Positions 55,507-61,644 of a stretch of 64,000 bases of DNA are shown here, one piece after another. A program made the translations under genes and the position numbers. The DNA lies in contig OY970067.1 of NCBI GenBank assembly GCA_963705305.1, forward strand, positions 3,904,001 through 3,968,000. Direction: 5' to 3'. The stretch is from an uncultured Methylomirabilota bacterium (lineage in GTDB: Bacteria; Methylomirabilota; Methylomirabilia; Methylomirabilales; 2-02-FULL-66-22). The notes beneath the pieces were generated by a model. The model was given only the letters and a program-made list of their open reading frames with translations. It ran no database searches and was not told the origin of the DNA. Positions within the stretch are counted from its first letter, which is position 1, and every line of letters begins with the position of its first letter.

Positions 55507-56652
55507 ATGAGCGTGGCCCTGGAAGTCATCGAGTGGTTGGATCCAGACGGTCGGCTGCTCGTGCACCGCTTTCCCGAGGAGGGCTCCACGGACATCAAGA
55601 TGGGGGCCCAGCTCATCGTCCGCGAGAGCCAGGCCGCCGTCTTCTTCCGCGACGGCAAGGGGCTGGACGTCTTCGGCCCTGGCCGCCACACACTGTCCAC
55701 CCTGAATCTCCCGATTCTCACCCGGCTGCTGAGCCTCCCCTGGGGTTTCACCAGCCCGTTCCGGGCCGAGGTCTACTTCGTCAACTTGCGGGTCTTCACC
55801 GAGTTGAAGTGGGGCACCCAAGAGCCGGTGGCCTTCAAAGACAAGGAGCTGGGCCTGGTCCGCCTGCGGGCCTTCGGCATCTTCACGGCGCGCGTCACCC
55901 AGCCTCTCCTGTTCGTAAATACGCTGGTCGGCACCCAGGGTGCCTACACGTCGGATCAGATAGACACCTATCTCCGGGAGGTGATCGTCTCGCGGCTGAA
56001 CGACTTCCTGGGCGAGCACATGGAGACGATCCTTCAGCTGCCGAAGCAGTACGATGAGATCGGTGCGGCGGTGAAGGCGCGGCTGCAGGACGACTTTCAC
56101 CGCTACGGGCTGGAGTTGATCGATTTCTTCATCAATGCCATTACGCCCCCTCCCAACGTCCAGCGGATGATGGACGAACGCTCCGGAATGGCCGCGGTGG
56201 GCAACCTGGACGACTTCATGAAATACAAGGCCGCCAAGGCGCTGGGAGATGCGGCGGCGGGCATCGGGAGCGGGGGGGCCGGTGCGGGCGGGGCGGGCCT
56301 GGGGATGGGGGCCGGTCTGGGATTCCTGCTGCCCGGGATGCTCTACCGAACGCTGCGACCCGAAGACGCGGACCCCCAGCGCATCCAAGAGCGCGGCACG
56401 GTCAATTGCCCCAAGTGTCATGCCGAGGTTCCATTGACGGGACGCTTCTGCCCCGCCTGCGGGAACCAGATGGTGGTGGCCAACAAGTGCCCTCGCTGTG
56501 GCGAGAACGTGACCGCCGAAGCGAAATTCTGCCCCGCCTGCGGCGTGAATTTGAAAGAGACGTTCGCCTGTCCCCACTGTCGCGCGACGCTTCCGCCCGG
56601 AACGAAGTTCTGTCCGAGCTGTGGTGAATCCGCGGTTCCACCGGCGCCGTGA
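55507..56652 (+). CDS. SPFH/Band-7 (YdjI-like) protein with C-terminal double zinc ribbons
   Basis: QLIVRESQAAVFF.DG, GPGRHTLST.NLP, SPF.AEVYFVN, KWGT; six CPxC motifs. Confidence 0.9.
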   Translation: MSVALEVIEWLDPDGRLLVHRFPEEGSTDIKMGAQLIVRESQAAVFFRDGKGLDVFGPGRHTLSTLNLPILTRLLSLPWGFTSPFRAEVYFVNLRVFTELKWGTQEPVAFKDKELGLVRLRAFGIFTARVTQPLLFVNTLVGTQGAYTSDQIDTYLREVIVSRLNDFLGEHMETILQLPKQYDEIGAAVKARLQDDFHRYGLELIDFFINAITPPPNVQRMMDERSGMAAVGNLDDFMKYKAAKALGDAAAGIGSGGAGAGGAGLGMGAGLGFLLPGMLYRTLRPEDADPQRIQERGTVNCPKCHAEVPLTGRFCPACGNQMVVANKCPRCGENVTAEAKFCPACGVNLKETFACPHCRATLPPGTKFCPSCGESAVPPAP

Positions 56653-57392
56653 AGATTCCCTGCCCCCAATGCGGGGGCGAGGTCGTGCCCCAGGAGGCCG
56701 CAGGATTCGTCGTCTGCCCCTTCTGCGGCACCGGCCTGGTGCTGGACCTGACCGGCGTCCGGCGCCACTTCCTGTACCGCCCCCGCCGGGCCGTGGCGGA
56801 TGTGCTGCCCCTCCTGCGGCGCTGGTGCGATGCGCACGCGTTTCCGCGCCTCTCCTCGCTTTCTTCCCCCCGCCTCACCTATTATCCGTTCTGGCGCTAT
56901 GAAGGTCGGGGCCGCCCCAGGCTCATTCCGGGTTGGACGACGCTGGAAGGGCGGTGGACGGCAGTTGCCGCACCCGAGGCAGAGCAGGTGCTGTTCGACC
57001 CCTCGAGCGTGGGCGGGGCGCGCGTGGTGGAGGCCGATGTCGCCGAGCTCGCCGCACGCGCGCGCCTTTCGGGAACGGAGGATGCGGGGGCCGGCGACCT
57101 CGTGCACGTGCCCTTTTACGAGCTGACGTTCGCAATCGGCGACAGCCGGATGGACGCCGCCCTGGACGCTTGTTCGGGCCAGGTCTATCCTAGGCAGCTT
57201 CCGCCCAATCTCGATCCCCGGGGGGGAGGCGGCCGGGGGGGCGCTGACCTCTGGACGGGCCTGCTGGGGTTCGCCGTGATGGTGCTGGAAGCGGTGATTT
57301 TCCCCACCACGTGGAGCGCCGCCGTGGCGGTCGGGCTCACCGCATGGGCGTTGTACTGGCTGCTGGCCTGTGCCGACGCGGGAGCGGCCTGA
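56649..57392 (+). CDS. Zn-ribbon membrane protein (YdjG-like)
   Basis: CPQCGG..CPFCG, YYPFW, VPFY, DACSGQV, two C-terminal TM helices. Confidence 0.75.
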   Translation: MKIPCPQCGGEVVPQEAAGFVVCPFCGTGLVLDLTGVRRHFLYRPRRAVADVLPLLRRWCDAHAFPRLSSLSSPRLTYYPFWRYEGRGRPRLIPGWTTLEGRWTAVAAPEAEQVLFDPSSVGGARVVEADVAELAARARLSGTEDAGAGDLVHVPFYELTFAIGDSRMDAALDACSGQVYPRQLPPNLDPRGGGGRGGADLWTGLLGFAVMVLEAVIFPTTWSAAVAVGLTAWALYWLLACADAGAA

Positions 57393-57465
57393 CCGCTGCC
57401 TCGGCCGCCCCCGGGCGCCGTCCGGGGGGCTTCCGTGCACACGAGGGAAAAAGGACGGGACGACC

Positions 57466-58524
57466 GTGGGGCTCAACCATCTCGGATGCCCATCCTGCGG
57501 GGGGACGCTGACCGTGGCCGAAGGCCAGCGGACGATCCGCTGCGCCTACTGTGGGGGCGAGCACCTGGTCCTCGTTCCGGGGGCGGTTCCTCGTTACGCT
57601 GTGTCCCCGGAGATCGATCGGGAAGGTGCCCGCGCCGCAGCGGAGCAGGTCCTGCGCCGGCCGGTCCTTCCCCGTGCCCTGCGACGGCGGGGGCGGATCC
57701 AGGAGGTGGCGCTGTGCTACGCCCCCTTCTACGAGTTCACCGGGACCCGCGTCGGGACCTTCCGCCTCCAGGTGGCCGAGCGGCGGCCGACGCGGGACCC
57801 GGCAGCCGATGAGCCCGACCCCGCGCAGCGGCTCCAGGAGGTACCGGCCGAGCGGACCGACACGCGGGTTATCCAGCAGGGGTATCTCCGGGTGGAGCCC
57901 GCCTGCAGCCTGCCGGAGCTGGGGACGGCTCGGATCCCGCTGGCAGAGCTGCGTCGCGGGCGCCGGCCGGTGGGCCTGGAGCCGTTCGACCTGGTGGAGC
58001 TCCAGCGCCGGGCCGTGGTCTTCGCCCCGACCCAGCCGATGACCGGCTTCGTCGAGGACTCCCAGCGGCACATCCAGGCCGCAGGGGACAAGACGCGGAT
58101 GGTCGAGGGCCAGGCCAAGGTTCTCTACTATCCCGTCTGGCAGGCCCGCTATCGCTACCAGGGCCGCCCCTACGAGATTGCCGTTGACGGGGTAAGCGGG
58201 GCGGTCCTGGCCGCCCGGGTCCCGCGGAGCATCGGGCTCGCGACGGCCCTGGCGGTGGGCATCCTGGCGGTGGGCGCCCTGTGCGTCGGCCGTCCGGCCC
58301 AGGCCTTCGCACGGCGCATGGCCATCCTGGGAGGCACAAGCGGTCGGCTTTTCGGATGGGTAGGCTGCCTGGGATGGGTGCTCCTGGGCGGAGCGGTCGT
58401 CTGCGTCGTGGCCTGGACTGCCTGGAAGGTGGCCGGGCGGGGCGGCGACCTGTTCCTGGACGAAGGGCCAGCCCCCCCTCCGTCGGACGTGACGCCAGGG
58501 GGCCGCGAGCCCGGACAGAGCTGA
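57466..58524 (+). CDS. Zn-ribbon membrane protein (YdjG-like)
   Basis: CPSCGG..CAYCG, YAPFY, YYPVW..YRYQGR.Y..VDGVSG, C-terminal TM helices. Confidence 0.78.
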   Translation: MGLNHLGCPSCGGTLTVAEGQRTIRCAYCGGEHLVLVPGAVPRYAVSPEIDREGARAAAEQVLRRPVLPRALRRRGRIQEVALCYAPFYEFTGTRVGTFRLQVAERRPTRDPAADEPDPAQRLQEVPAERTDTRVIQQGYLRVEPACSLPELGTARIPLAELRRGRRPVGLEPFDLVELQRRAVVFAPTQPMTGFVEDSQRHIQAAGDKTRMVEGQAKVLYYPVWQARYRYQGRPYEIAVDGVSGAVLAARVPRSIGLATALAVGILAVGALCVGRPAQAFARRMAILGGTSGRLFGWVGCLGWVLLGGAVVCVVAWTAWKVAGRGGDLFLDEGPAPPPSDVTPGGREPGQS

Positions 58525-58525
58525 C

Positions 58526-59185
58526 ATGGACCAGCCGACGATTTTGCCTCTCCGCTGCCCGGGGTGCGGCGACCTGCTTCTCGGGCTCCAGCACGACGCG
58601 GTGTTCTGGTGCCGGGGCTGCGGCACCCCCCAGGAGGTCATCGGTACAGAGCTGGTCGGGCGGCGGGGCAGCCGGGCGCGGGCGGATGCCGAGCCGGCCG
58701 ACCGGATCGTGCACTTGCCCATATGGGCGCTTCGCGTGAGCTACACGCTCCAGTGCGAGGATCGCCAGCGTGCGGCCCTGATGCGGCAGGTTCCTCCGAT
58801 CGAGTGGGTGTACGTCACCGGCTTCATGCTGCATAATGCCTGGTACTTCGGGGATCCGGGGATGGTCTTCACCGAAAAGCGGGTGACCCTGCAACCGCCG
58901 GAAGCCGCGGACAAACCGCAGCCGGCGATCGGATGCACGCGCGGCCTAGAGGCCGCCCGGGACTACGTGGAGCCCCACCTGCTCGCCATCATCGATCGGC
59001 GGGTGGATGTCGCGGGGCTCACGCTGCAGTGGAATGTGAGCGACGCCGTCCTCTGGGCGGTGCCGTTTCACGACGAGGGGAAGATGCTACGGGACGCCAT
59101 TGTGGGCTGGCGCTTCCCGGCGGCGGCCGTGACCGGCATCGGGTCCATCCGGGGCCATGCCGGGGGCGGCGGCGATGCACGATGA
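58526..59185 (+). CDS. Zn-ribbon hypothetical protein
   Basis: LRCPGCG..FWCRGCG, LPIW, WAVPF; ATGA overlap with rlmN. Confidence 0.72.
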   Translation: MDQPTILPLRCPGCGDLLLGLQHDAVFWCRGCGTPQEVIGTELVGRRGSRARADAEPADRIVHLPIWALRVSYTLQCEDRQRAALMRQVPPIEWVYVTGFMLHNAWYFGDPGMVFTEKRVTLQPPEAADKPQPAIGCTRGLEAARDYVEPHLLAIIDRRVDVAGLTLQWNVSDAVLWAVPFHDEGKMLRDAIVGWRFPAAAVTGIGSIRGHAGGGGDAR

Positions 59186-60225
59186 CGACCACGCGGGCGG
59201 ATCTGGTCGGTCTCCTGAGCTCGGAGATGGAAGAGCTCCTGGCAGAGCTGGGAAAGCCGCGCTACAAGGGGCGGCAGCTGTTCCAGTGGGTGCATGCGCG
59301 CCGGGCCGTGGCTCTCGATAGTATGACGGATCTCTCCAAGCCGCTGCGGGTCCTCCTGGCAGAGCGCGTCAGCATCGGCCGCCCCGAGCCGGTGCGGGGC
59401 CAGCGGGCCGGGGACGGCACGCGGAAATTCCTGCTTCGCCTGGCGGACGGGGAAGAGATCGAAAGCGTCCTGATCCCCGACGAGGGCCGCCTCACCGCCT
59501 GCATCTCGACCCAGGTCGGCTGCCCTCTGGCCTGCCGCTTTTGCCTCACGGGTCTCATGGGAATGCGGCGGAATCTGCGGGCGTCGGAGATCGTCGGCCA
59601 GGTTTTGTGCCTGCAGGACCAGCTGGAGGAGGGGGAGAGGATCTCGAACATCGTCCTGATGGGGATGGGAGAGCCGCTTCTGAACTTCCCCGAGGTCGAG
59701 CGCGCAATTCTGATTCTCTGCGATTCTCATGGGGCCGATTTCTCGCCGCGCCGGATCACCCTGTCCACCGCCGGGCATGTCCCCGGCATCCGGAAGCTGG
59801 CCGCGTCCAATCTGGGGGTCAACCTGGCGGTGTCGCTGAGCGCCACGACCGATGCGGTGCGCGATGCCATCATGCCGATCAACAAGCGCTGGTCCCTGGC
59901 AGAGCTGCTGGAAGCCTGTCGTGCCTATCCGATCCCCAGCCGGCGGCGCCTCACGTTCGAGTACGTCCTGCTGGATGCTGTGAACGACTCGCCCGAAGAC
60001 GCGGGGCGGCTGGTCCGGCTGCTGCACGGCATTCGCTGCAAGATCAACCTCATCCCCCTGAACGCCTCCCCCGATCTTCCCGACCGGCCCCCGCCCCCGG
60101 CGCGGGTGGCGGCCTTCCAACAGGTGCTCCTGGATAAGGGCTTCACAGCCACGGTCCGGGAGAGCCGCGGTTGGGAGATCTCCGCCGCCTGCGGTATGCT
60201 CCGCATCGACCAGGGCAAAATATGA
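59182..60225 (+). CDS. rlmN: dual-specificity RNA methyltransferase RlmN
   Basis: DGTRKFL, CISTQVGCPLACRFC, MGMGEP, FEYVLL, ISAACG. Confidence 0.97.
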   Translation: MTTTRADLVGLLSSEMEELLAELGKPRYKGRQLFQWVHARRAVALDSMTDLSKPLRVLLAERVSIGRPEPVRGQRAGDGTRKFLLRLADGEEIESVLIPDEGRLTACISTQVGCPLACRFCLTGLMGMRRNLRASEIVGQVLCLQDQLEEGERISNIVLMGMGEPLLNFPEVERAILILCDSHGADFSPRRITLSTAGHVPGIRKLAASNLGVNLAVSLSATTDAVRDAIMPINKRWSLAELLEACRAYPIPSRRRLTFEYVLLDAVNDSPEDAGRLVRLLHGIRCKINLIPLNASPDLPDRPPPPARVAAFQQVLLDKGFTATVRESRGWEISAACGMLRIDQGKI

Positions 60226-60635
60226 ACCGCCAAGACGCCAAGGCCTTCAAGGTCGAGCCAAGCAAGGATGTGGACGAACTAGCTCGATCGGTGATCGGGG
60301 CAGCAATCGAGGTGCATCGGCACCTTGGGCCGGGGTTTCTCGAAGGCGTATACGAGGAAGCGCTCGTAGTTGAACTGAGTCTCCGCTCGATCCCCTTCGA
60401 AAGACAGTTGCCCGTCCCGGTTCACTACAAGACGCACCGTGTGGGGAAAGGGCGTGTCGACCTGCTGGTGGGAGGTGAGCTTCTGGTGGAGTTGAAGGCA
60501 GTCGATGCGCTTGCTCCGATCCATAAAGCGCAGGTGATTTCGTATCTTAAGGCTATGGGATTGCATCTTGGTCTGCTCATCAACTTCAACGCATCCGTCC
60601 TCAAAGATGGAATACAACGAATTGTCCTTTCCTGA
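60222..60635 (+). CDS. GxxExxY protein (PD-(D/E)XK nuclease fold)
   Basis: IGAAIEVH..LGPGFLEGVY, RVDLLV..LVELKAV, AQVISYL, GLLINF. Confidence 0.93.
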   Translation: MNRQDAKAFKVEPSKDVDELARSVIGAAIEVHRHLGPGFLEGVYEEALVVELSLRSIPFERQLPVPVHYKTHRVGKGRVDLLVGGELLVELKAVDALAPIHKAQVISYLKAMGLHLGLLINFNASVLKDGIQRIVLS

Positions 60636-60669
60636 TCTAGCCCATGGAATCCTTGGCGCCTTGGCGGTT
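60225..60669. mobile_element. putative GxxExxY element bounded by 19-bp inverted repeats
   Basis: AACCGCCAAGACGCCAAGG (60225-60243) and CCTTGGCGCCTTGGCGGTT (60651-60669), 18/19 reverse-complementary. Confidence 0.65.
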
Positions 60670-60684
60670 GTTCGTAAGTATTCC

Positions 60685-60713
60685 TTGACTCTCCATGGGA
60701 GTTTTCGTAGTAT
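60685..60713 (+). promoter_or_regulatory. promoter of tRNA-fMet
   Basis: TTGACT-17nt-TAGTAT. Confidence 0.7.
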
Positions 60714-60718
60714 ACCTC

Positions 60719-60795
<77 letters not shown>

Positions 60796-60804
60796 AATAA
60801 AATC

Positions 60805-60839
60805 AATGGGTTACGCGAATTTCGCGGAACCCATTTTTT
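60805..60839 (+). terminator. tRNA terminator overlapping an IHF-consensus site (60801-60813)
   Basis: AATGGGTT-a-CGCGAA-t-TTCGCG-g-AACCCATT followed by TTTT; AATCAATGGGTTA fits WATCAANNNNTTR. Confidence 0.75.
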
Positions 60840-61451
60840 GTTGGAAAATGCCCAGCCGGCCCATGTTCCGTTTCTTCCTGCTTGTGAATTTCTGAGTCGG
60901 GGTCGCGAAACAGTACTGCCATAGCCCGTAGGCAATTAACGGGTACCGTCAGCGCCGATCGCCACGGCACCATAGGCTCGCCCAGCTGCCCACCTCACGT
61001 CTTACGAATTGCGGGGGCAACACCCGCCATCCTTGAAGAAAAAGTTGAGGGCGGTTCTTTTTCCTGCAAACCCAGGCCCCATATCCTTCACCCACAGTCT
61101 CCTTACAAGGCTGCTTTAGCTCTTACCCAAACATCTCCCTGAGCTCCTGCCATAGTTTTTCAGGATCATCACATAGGTCGATCAAGCTAACTCCAAGACT
61201 ATGCGGGGACCTTCCGCGACGACGGCCGAAGGCCGTGTGCTACAAGGGCTTAGTTTTCAGCGGTCATGCCGATCTCGGCATGACTGATGAAGCCTGGTCA
61301 CTTTCAACGTGGCGCTTCCAGCCTTGCGGCTACCGGGTGGAGGCTGTCCCGCTGCTCGGCCGGAAAAGCGCCAAGAAGGGCCTCACCGTGGAGGAAGGGG
61401 AAGCGGTGTGCAGCCGAGGAGACTGCCCGATTCTCTCGCCCACGATCGCTC

Positions 61452-61508
61452 CATCCACCGGACATCCACCGGACAGCTATTGACAGGCGCGCACGAAACC
61501 GATAGGTT
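61452..61508 (+). promoter_or_regulatory. promoter preceded by an 11-bp tandem repeat
   Basis: CATCCACCGGA x2 (61452-61473), then TTGACA (61480)-17nt-TAGGTT. Confidence 0.55.
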
Positions 61509-61644
61509 CAACCAGTACCTCGTCTCCTGTGAGCGGACCCCCGGAAGAGGTGTCGCCAAAACTTATAAACACAGCAACGTATGACCCCGAAAACAGTGTC
61601 TGAGTTCTGTAGTTTGCGTGATCGAGAGGAGGAGGGGCTACCCC

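Follow-up and report, generated by a model that had tools for sequence, protein, structure and literature searches.

The window analysed here is a stretch of 64,000 nucleotides from the genome of an uncultured Methylomirabilota bacterium (GenBank assembly GCA_963705305.1, contig OY970067.1, positions 3,904,001 to 3,968,000 of the forward strand). Between rlmN and a tRNA-Met gene it contains a block of 445 bp (60225..60669, plus strand; arm, gene and arm) that, among the hairpin-armed cassettes of its family, is the only one in this genome to carry a gene. The cassette consists of a gene for a GxxExxY protein, which has a nuclease fold, enclosed within two inverted arrays in which a 7-nt word recurs every 8-9 nt, typically three times per arm. 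Gene and arms together look like an undescribed kind of selfish DNA. The data support a compact cassette that is now, or once was, mobile at the DNA level in the manner of REP-associated tyrosine transposases (RAYTs) and their REPINs (hairpin-forming doublets of REPs, which are repetitive extragenic palindromes), with the words as the likely recognition sites of its own nuclease; we put the chances of this reading at about even. The initial annotation, made from the sequence alone, had already proposed gene and repeats as one insertable, selfish, RAYT/REP-like unit, a proposal that gained support from the enrichment of brackets around homologous genes, from gene-less pairs and from empty sites.

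The host genome comprises 5.65 Mb in a single contig with a G+C content of 66%. The gene rlmN (59182..60225, plus strand), encoding a radical-SAM 23S rRNA/tRNA methyltransferase with the Pfam domains RlmN_N and Radical_SAM, ends with the stop codon TGA at 60223-60225, and the gene for the GxxExxY / PDDEXK_3 nuclease-fold protein (60222..60635, plus strand; 137 amino acids plus stop) starts with ATG at 60222-60224, giving an ATGA overlap. The left arm, AACCGCCAAGACGCCAAGG (60225..60243, plus strand), holds CGCCAAG twice with AAC ahead and encodes N-R-Q-D-A-K. The right arm, CCTTGGCGCCTTGGCGGTT (60651..60669, minus strand), begins 16 nt past the stop codon of the gene and matches the left arm in reverse complement at 18 of 19 positions; in each arm the two copies of CGCCAAG are 8 nt apart. 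A repeat finder ranked this pair first among the inverted repeats of 59900-61100 and extended the pairing imperfectly to 33 nt at 79% (60225-60257 / 60637-60669); scored with +1/-2, the repeat reaches 16. Just beyond the right arm lies the promoter-like site of tRNA-fMet, TTGACT-17 nt-TAGTAT (60685..60713, plus strand), followed by the tRNA-Met (CAT) gene (60719..60795, plus strand), of initiator type according to the initial annotation, which forms the downstream anchor of the insertion site.

The extent of the 414-bp gene within the 445-bp unit, the 18/19 match of its ends, the doubled heptamers at 8-nt spacing, the arm-encoded N-terminus and the ATGA overlap had all been described before and were confirmed in the sequence. 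The same applies to the placement of the unit between rlmN and the tRNA promoter, with the addition that the rlmN stop codon, of which the left repeat had been said to give the last base, is itself supplied by the left end of the cassette. The lower G+C content attributed to the unit holds in relation to rlmN (0.485-0.60 vs 0.625-0.72), and low values extend downstream to about 61300. No own promoter was found for the GxxExxY gene, the start of which overlaps the rlmN stop. In agreement with the earlier statement that DDE, HUH and tyrosine recombinases are lacking, a Pfam scan of the unit and the neighbouring open reading frames (ORFs) detected no transposase or recombinase domain.

The protein was assigned to PF13366 (E 7.3e-42, 142.9 bits, cut-off 22) and to TIGR04256 'GxxExxY' (E 1.8e-42, 144.4 bits, cut-off 35). 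PDDEXK_3 is the sole Pfam match, and no REP-associated tyrosine (HUH/Y1) transposase domain was detected. The motifs G38-x-x-E41-x-x-Y44, D80, E90-L-K92 and Q104-x-x-x-Y108 are present; G38, E41, Y44, D80, E90 and K92 are invariant or at least 90% conserved among 56 aligned sequences, and E51, Q104 and Y108 are likewise invariant or nearly so. In an AlphaFold2 model with a predicted local distance difference test score (pLDDT) of 92.9 and a predicted template modelling score (pTM) of 0.85, the first 13 residues, which are encoded by the arm, are disordered. Fold comparisons of the model returned the BpuSI nuclease domain (Z 7.9), Cas4 SSO0001 (7.8), CinB (7.5), HsdR (7.2), Hjc (6.8) and the splicing endonuclease (about 6), while Foldseek placed Cas4 first (E 1.7e-3). 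The predicted fold is a generic PD-(D/E)XK fold from which no single nuclease subfamily stands out; the D..ELK and QxxxY motifs recognised at the outset are present. Sequence searches gave no match in the PDB up to E 1 and none in PHROGs. PADLOC reported a faint Cas4 match only (E 0.0042), and none for the second GxxExxY protein of the genome.

The gene of this second copy, 45% identical to that of the window, is also bracketed by an inverted repeat, built of another word (CGCAGAT every 9 nt). The subfamily of the window copy is referred to as A and that of the second copy as B. For each subfamily 80 loci from species-representative genomes were collected, and each locus was scored by the best ungapped inverted match between its flanks; pairs of flanks shifted by 600-900 bp in homologous loci served as controls. 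One of the six seed peptides of the A sample lies in the arm-encoded N-terminus, a possible source of bias; all seed peptides of the B sample lie within the domain. An inverted repeat scoring at least 13 was present at 58 of the 80 A loci and 59 of the 80 B loci, compared with 3 of 308 shifted controls, which is the enrichment around GxxExxY homologues that had been expected of a unit of this kind. Both arms contain two or more C[GA]C[CAG][AG]AG words at 64 of 79 A loci and at none of 80 B loci; for C[GA]CAGAT words the corresponding counts are 50 of 80 B loci and none of 79 A loci, and the word is tied specifically to the protein subfamily. Most often the layout is 3+3 words, with a period of 8-9 nt in A and 9-10 nt in B, and the cassette in the window has 2+2. 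Across subfamily A the word varies (CGCCAAG, CGCAGAG, CACAGAG, CGCAAAG and others). Two-word identity in A cassettes is 0.61 within an arm, 0.62 between the arms and 0.14 between cassettes: within a cassette the words change in concert.

At least 19 named phyla are represented among the hosts of the 136 typed loci, and gene and arms travel together across phyla. Word type follows the protein tree, with 43 changes vs 73-83 in shuffles. Host phylum follows the tree as well (49 changes vs 76-90), so that the tree test cannot separate co-inheritance from co-adaptation.

Within the genome of the window the arms are far more numerous than the gene. The doublet CGCCAAGNCGCCAAG, allowing at most one mismatch, occurs 118 times vs 8 times for the mirrored control, and its matches form convergent pairs with conserved outer flanks. 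A genome-wide nhmmer search with profiles of both arms, carried out for the gene-less repeat pairs envisaged in the initial annotation, located 131 arm sites that make up 47 pairs and 37 solo arms. All 47 pairs have identical left-type/right-type polarity and a size of 109-222 bp, with inner lengths clustering at about 30-50, 107-115 and 137-140 nt; the centres of short copies consist of runs of TTCGAA 8-mers, and long copies contain a diverged central module. Almost all are intergenic (45 of 47), and their ends often overlap the stop codon of the neighbouring gene by 2-7 nt. The only A-type arms 300-1000 bp apart in the genome are those of the GxxExxY cassette, and gene-less pairs stand to gene-bearing cassettes as 47 to 1. 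Gene-bearing and gene-less arms have in common a spacer base that is A in the left arm and G in the right, and this asymmetry points to their common descent. In 4 of 20 long gene-less copies (L258, L259, L261 and L272) a nested 20-nt palindrome of the ACCCAACGC-GAG-CGTTGGGT type stands where the right arm would have its first word; elements appear to be nested within each other.

Two further searches of the genome were made. A transposase was sought between distant A-type arms; the 85.3-90.3 kb stretch in question holds ligA and genes for an SH3 protein and an M48 peptidase, which are housekeeping genes, and the arms just sit in successive spacers. A de novo census of inverted word arrays (exact 7-mers or 6-mers) returned 6-7 regions vs 2-3 in mirror controls and was too strict; it recovered both GxxExxY cassettes, and its match of CCGGCAC words was a false positive inside a histidine-kinase gene.

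The insertion site itself can be followed through the relatives. The locus was located via RlmN in 29 of 31 related genomes. In other genera of the order there are six loci at which 53-96 bp separate rlmN from the tRNA gene, a distance taken up by the promoter only and without arms, so that the empty site looked for in relatives is available in sister genera. One of the six (L131) comes from an unpublished genome, G026; the other five suffice without it. At the outgroup locus L135, as read from the sequence, the rlmN frame crosses the tRNA-fMet promoter and stops in its -10 box, so the block entered the 3' tail of rlmN in an ancestor of the genus and brought the new stop codon with it. By the same kind of reading, the rlmN frame of L133 has no stop in the stretch shown. 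The tRNA gene lies beside rlmN in 18 of 28 related loci scanned, which contain 19 tRNA genes in total, and a promoter box of the TTGACA type precedes it in all 16 related loci shown with the tRNA.

RlmN identity within the genus is only 70-76%, and the state of the site varies. An intact gene with arms occupies it in G007 and G011, as in G000, the genome of the window; in G001 and G016 the start of the gene is present, at contig ends. Relatives that have the gene at this locus also carry the arms, and the contrary case named in the initial annotation, the gene in the same place without inverted repeats, was not encountered. Truncated genes lie inside the arms in G010 (residues 100-137) and G004 (residues 1-63), and gene-less hairpins of the same arms are found in G012 (116-bp spacer) and G015 (210 bp): in some species the site has decayed to truncated genes and gene-less hairpins. 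G003 (L126) and G018 (L128) have another word array, of the CGACAG/GATAG type, at the end of rlmN, with an inverted partner before the tRNA promoter, and the left-hand run of this type occurs alone in G008 (L114), G014 (L120) and G013 (L122). One site hosts two unrelated arm families within one genus. Selection has retained the gene in some lines, and others have lost it. The spacer between rlmN and the tRNA has grown to 1312 bp in G011 (L121) and to 703 bp in G007 (L119), where several tandem or nested gene-less elements built of a related word, of the GAACCGCCACGGCGCCA type, lie on both sides of the intact GxxExxY gene.

The co-occurrence of arms and gene was surveyed in 66 genomes of the order, a coarse comparison in which kin are not independent. 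The doublet is enriched only in the genus of the window and in G020 (30 vs 13 in the control); high counts were obtained for G002 (181 vs 12), G015 (95 vs 22) and G012 (91 vs 26), and the other genera have at most 8 doublets. Besides 18 of the genus's 20 other genomes, the protein was found in G020 (63% identity) and G065 (47%), and the remaining 43 genomes of the order gave no GxxExxY protein match. Within the genus the parallel between arms and gene fails, both in the genomes with truncated genes at the site, which show no enrichment (G004, 20 vs 38; G010, 31 vs 30), and in four arm-rich genomes described below. In intergenic DNA, pairs of arms that carry the same words but no gene have multiplied in lineage-specific variants: among the places listed, the left arm reads CGCCATG-A-CGCCAAG in at least 24 places vs 3 with CGCCAAG in G000, and in 2 vs 27 in G012, a difference that can be argued to reflect bursts from single master copies. 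Well beyond the phylum, the Calothrix record of L066 contains 256 doublets vs 0 in the control together with 3 family genes, and the Westiellopsis record of L074 36 vs 0 with 1 family gene.

If the cassette is mobile in the way favoured here, the unit would act at the DNA level, as a RAYT gene does with its REPINs. The nuclease would be expressed via translational coupling to rlmN and would bind the word arrays, both in its own cassette's arms and in the gene-less copies. Nicking or cutting at the arms, perhaps on extruded hairpins, could then allow the unit to be excised and inserted anew, or to be copied through repair. In the transcript, folding of the arms may also mask the start codon and hold expression low. 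A wider proposal can be made tentatively, with distinctly less confidence than the reading of this one cassette: GxxExxY proteins might be the enzymes of an undescribed class of mobile DNA spread across phyla, each subfamily reading its own 7-nt word in inverted arrays of about three per arm and mobilising a 0.45-kb cassette along with large populations of gene-less hairpins.

A number of observations weigh against a nuclease-driven cassette; three of them (the divergence of the gene, the arms in genomes without an intact gene and the PF05635 brackets) bear against the idea of the initial annotation that the nuclease recognises its own repeats. No target duplication was seen by eye at the ends of the unit in seven related loci, as the initial annotation had remarked of the window; divergence among the relatives is too great for filled and empty sites to be compared to the exact base. 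Relative to G007, the gene and rlmN have diverged to about the same degree (76% protein identity vs 74% for RlmN). This similarity dates the insertion to the ancestor of the genus, with no recent movement, and suggests a long vertical residence under purifying selection, which is not obviously explained by a purely selfish gene. Both Pfam and the model indicate one compact domain, with no additional DNA-binding domain. Among the gene-less copies, which are old and have diverged, 20 long ones have a mean column identity of 71%, and the B-type copy of the genome is accompanied by only one gene-less pair and one possible solo arm. Moreover, G018 (93% complete) has 55 doublets vs 6 in the control and no GxxExxY match, G032 (98% complete, 7 contigs) has 54 vs 8 and only a match of 47% identity with a stop codon, and no A-type gene was found in G012 and G015 with their 91 and 95 doublets; the arms outlive the gene in several relatives. 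Finally, three of the four matches in the genome to PF05635 (four-helix-bundle, '23S rRNA IVS protein', IVS standing for intervening sequence) are bracketed by similar inverted word arrays. On contig C1 of G000 these genes lie at 622706-623020, 4381295-4381609 and 2769593-2769760, with the words CAGCnnT, AACGTnn and GTCAACnn, respectively, and the fourth match (4399950-4400264) has only a G-rich 15-nt inverted repeat. As PF05635 proteins do not have the nuclease fold, an architecture of this kind needs no nuclease cargo.

The last point leads to the main rival explanation, in which the arms are a generic, IVS-like hairpin carrier moved by something else and GxxExxY is one of several small cargoes. 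The mover would be a host function acting on hairpins or cruciforms, or another enzyme; the nuclease would not act on the arms and may have a different task, for example in defence or repair, by which the upkeep of the cassette is paid for. We regard this as rather unlikely, although it accounts for much of the above: the like-armed PF05635 genes, the abundance of arms in G018, G032, G012 and G015 in the absence of an intact cognate gene, and a gene kept intact for as long as rlmN has diverged, as expected for one that is useful to the host. The size and shape of the cassette also match the Coxiella IVS, which has 428-444 nt, a terminal stem of 28 bp and an ORF within its loop (PMC4990558). 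A carrier driven by the host should, however, be uniform per host, and the word is instead specific to the protein subfamily across phyla (0/80 and 0/79 in the exchanged tests). The enrichment of arms in the order is limited to lineages with GxxExxY genes. Another candidate enzyme was not found between or beside the arms, and no defence family was matched apart from the faint Cas4 signal (E 0.004).

Homing, and likewise a purely RNA-level role, rank below the carrier explanation. In the former case the gene-less hairpins would be targets and not offspring: the nuclease would cut an intact hairpin of its cognate word type, and repair templated by the gene-bearing copy would put the gene in the centre, as with homing endonuclease genes. 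The gene is always found at the centre of the palindrome, short palindromic modules nested in the centres or arms of gene-less copies (the TTCGAA 8-mers, and the 20-nt palindrome of 4/20 copies) suggest that centres are insertion sites, and subfamily-specific words would fit a recognition site. Such homing would nevertheless be very inefficient, with 1 of 48 A-type paired hairpins in the genome carrying the gene, and arms of 19-30 nt would give repair little homology to work with. The left arm of many A-type loci includes the start codon, so that arm and gene form one unit, and the decay series at the locus runs from gene to gene-less hairpin. For these reasons homing is considered improbable.

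An equally improbable alternative is that the arms matter only in the transcript, as a stem that is cut by RNase III or that masks the start codon and thereby insulates or regulates the gene, the dispersed copies being transcript-stabilising or terminating hairpins and not mobile DNA. A predicted fold of the RNA of 60205-60690 (minimum free energy -183.1 kcal/mol, z -2.29) has a closing stem that joins the left arm, including the AUG, to the right arm, so burying the start codon. The gene lacks an own promoter, its start overlaps the rlmN stop, and excision by RNase III has been shown for the similarly built Coxiella IVS (PMC4990558). If the stem were conserved as RNA, an excess of G-U pairs on the sense strand would be expected; the arm mismatches instead comprise 74 of G-U type, 81 of A-C type and 109 others in 62 A-type pairs, and 53, 78 and 145, respectively, in 65 B-type pairs, which means that 41-53% are non-wobble, and the lack of a G-U excess argues against a conserved RNA stem. 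Gene-less copies are unbiased with respect to transcription (14 in the same orientation as the flanking genes, 15 opposite, 10 between convergent and 5 between divergent genes, and 3 undetermined). The consensus fold of the 20 long gene-less copies has weak structure in their central modules, with a covariation term of -0.28, and an Rfam search of six loci with gene-less copies matched tRNA only. Insertion, spread across phyla and lineage-specific bursts would also be left unexplained by an RNA function alone. To judge from the mismatch pattern, RNA pairing may occur yet would not be what conserves the arms; the words appear to be what is conserved. Signs of excision were also sought in sequencing reads: no public run covers the stretch (best share 0.14), and four runs compared with it yielded chiefly tRNA of foreign organisms, besides a single identical contig of 261 nt (depth 2.1), and no joints.

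A chance inverted repeat beside an ordinary, vertically inherited gene, for which the shortness of the arms (19 nt) and the presence of the gene since the genus ancestor might speak, is excluded as a most improbable explanation by the repeats at 117 of 160 homologous loci vs 3 of 308 controls and by the 118 doublets vs 8 in the genome.

The nuclease-driven cassette can be compared with several known systems. REPINs are REP doublets that form hairpins and are associated with RAYTs (Bertels and Rainey 2011, PMC3116915, PMC3337134). The likenesses are that one or few enzyme genes are flanked by cognate repeats, that tens to hundreds of gene-less, inverted, hairpin-capable doublets are extragenic, with singlets beside them, and that separate repeat groups pair with separate enzyme lineages. 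The enzyme of the cassette differs in having a PD-(D/E)XK fold in place of an HUH/Y1 transposase domain, and its arms consist of 2-4 short words with a period of 8-10 nt, compared with a single REP palindrome. Gene and arms occur in no fewer than 19 named phyla, close relatives being present in hosts that are unrelated, and several genomes keep arms without the gene.

ORF-bearing IVSs of 23S rRNA are known from, e.g., Coxiella burnetii and Leptospira (PMC4990558). They share with the cassette a length of about 430-445 nt, terminal inverted repeats that close a stem, a small ORF in the loop, the lack of a transposase, and an origin and mode of movement that are left unexplained (PMC4990558); at the stem, the start region can be masked or removed. 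The cassette, in contrast, lies between rlmN and a tRNA gene and not in helix 25 or 45 of 23S rRNA, its cargo is PF13366 and not S23p/PF05635, its arms are made of repeated words, and its mismatch pattern does not support a conserved RNA stem.

The cassette family can also be set beside other small elements. Bacterial miniature inverted-repeat transposable elements are short, gene-less copies of parent insertion sequences, bounded by inverted repeats and dispersed in intergenic DNA. The gene-less copies described here resemble them in apparently deriving from a gene-bearing unit by internal deletion, as in the decay series, and in their lineage-specific bursts. They differ from these elements and from insertion sequences in that no DDE, HUH, serine or tyrosine enzyme is present, no target duplication was seen and the gene-bearing unit has only 445 bp. 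I-Ssp6803I is a PD-(D/E)XK homing endonuclease encoded in a cyanobacterial tRNA-fMet intron. It is likewise a small PD-(D/E)XK enzyme inside a selfish insert, but the cassette has no intron or intein context, and its protein has no sequence match to solved structures and fold matches of Z 7.9 at most. The tRNA-fMet neighbourhood that both have in common is probably a coincidence.

GxxExxY/PF13366 is a large family with members in many bacterial phyla and at least one archaeon, the function of which is not established. In the literature searched, GxxExxY, PF13366 and PDDEXK_3 are mentioned in passing only, with nothing on function, and no description was found of a nuclease paired with palindromic or heptamer repeats of this kind; the available parts of a paper on TAACTGA heptamer repeats do not mention a nuclease. 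The gene is now tied to a defined DNA architecture, a clean empty site and a gene-less population, which makes the function of the family directly testable. The ancestral empty site, the decay series at one locus and the 47-to-1 ratio are new from the window, as are the tests for orientation and G-U bias and the counter-examples with arms and no gene.

If the nuclease acts on the arms, the cassette would be a second route, distinct in mechanism, to living as RAYT/REPIN systems do, and it could yield small nucleases that recognise words in a simple, modular way. Otherwise, the architecture held in common with the four-helix-bundle cassettes would point to another mover of hairpin cassettes, rRNA IVSs included. 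Should the tentative cross-phylum proposal be true, it would provide a function for a large family, account in part for the excess of heptamer repeats that has long been noted in the genomes of bacteria and, with the like-built four-helix-bundle cassettes, open a route to the origin of the ORF-bearing rRNA IVSs.

Some features of the neighbourhood may be added. Upstream of rlmN, at 56649-59185 (plus strand), lie three consecutive ORFs of 247, 384 and 219 amino acids, each of which begins with CxxC...CxxC zinc-ribbon-like motifs; no Pfam family scored above its cut-off, and the first has weak matches to zinc ribbons of the TFIIB type. Downstream, about 780 bp with a G+C content of 0.50-0.58 (60840-61617) separate the tRNA gene from a hybrid histidine kinase (REC-PAS-GAF-GAF-HisKA_3), and the ORF list contains none above about 90 codons in this region. 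Just after the tRNA gene, at 60805-60835, a 15-nt hairpin, perfect but for one position and followed by a run of T, was not listed by a simple terminator scan and looks like the terminator of the tRNA.

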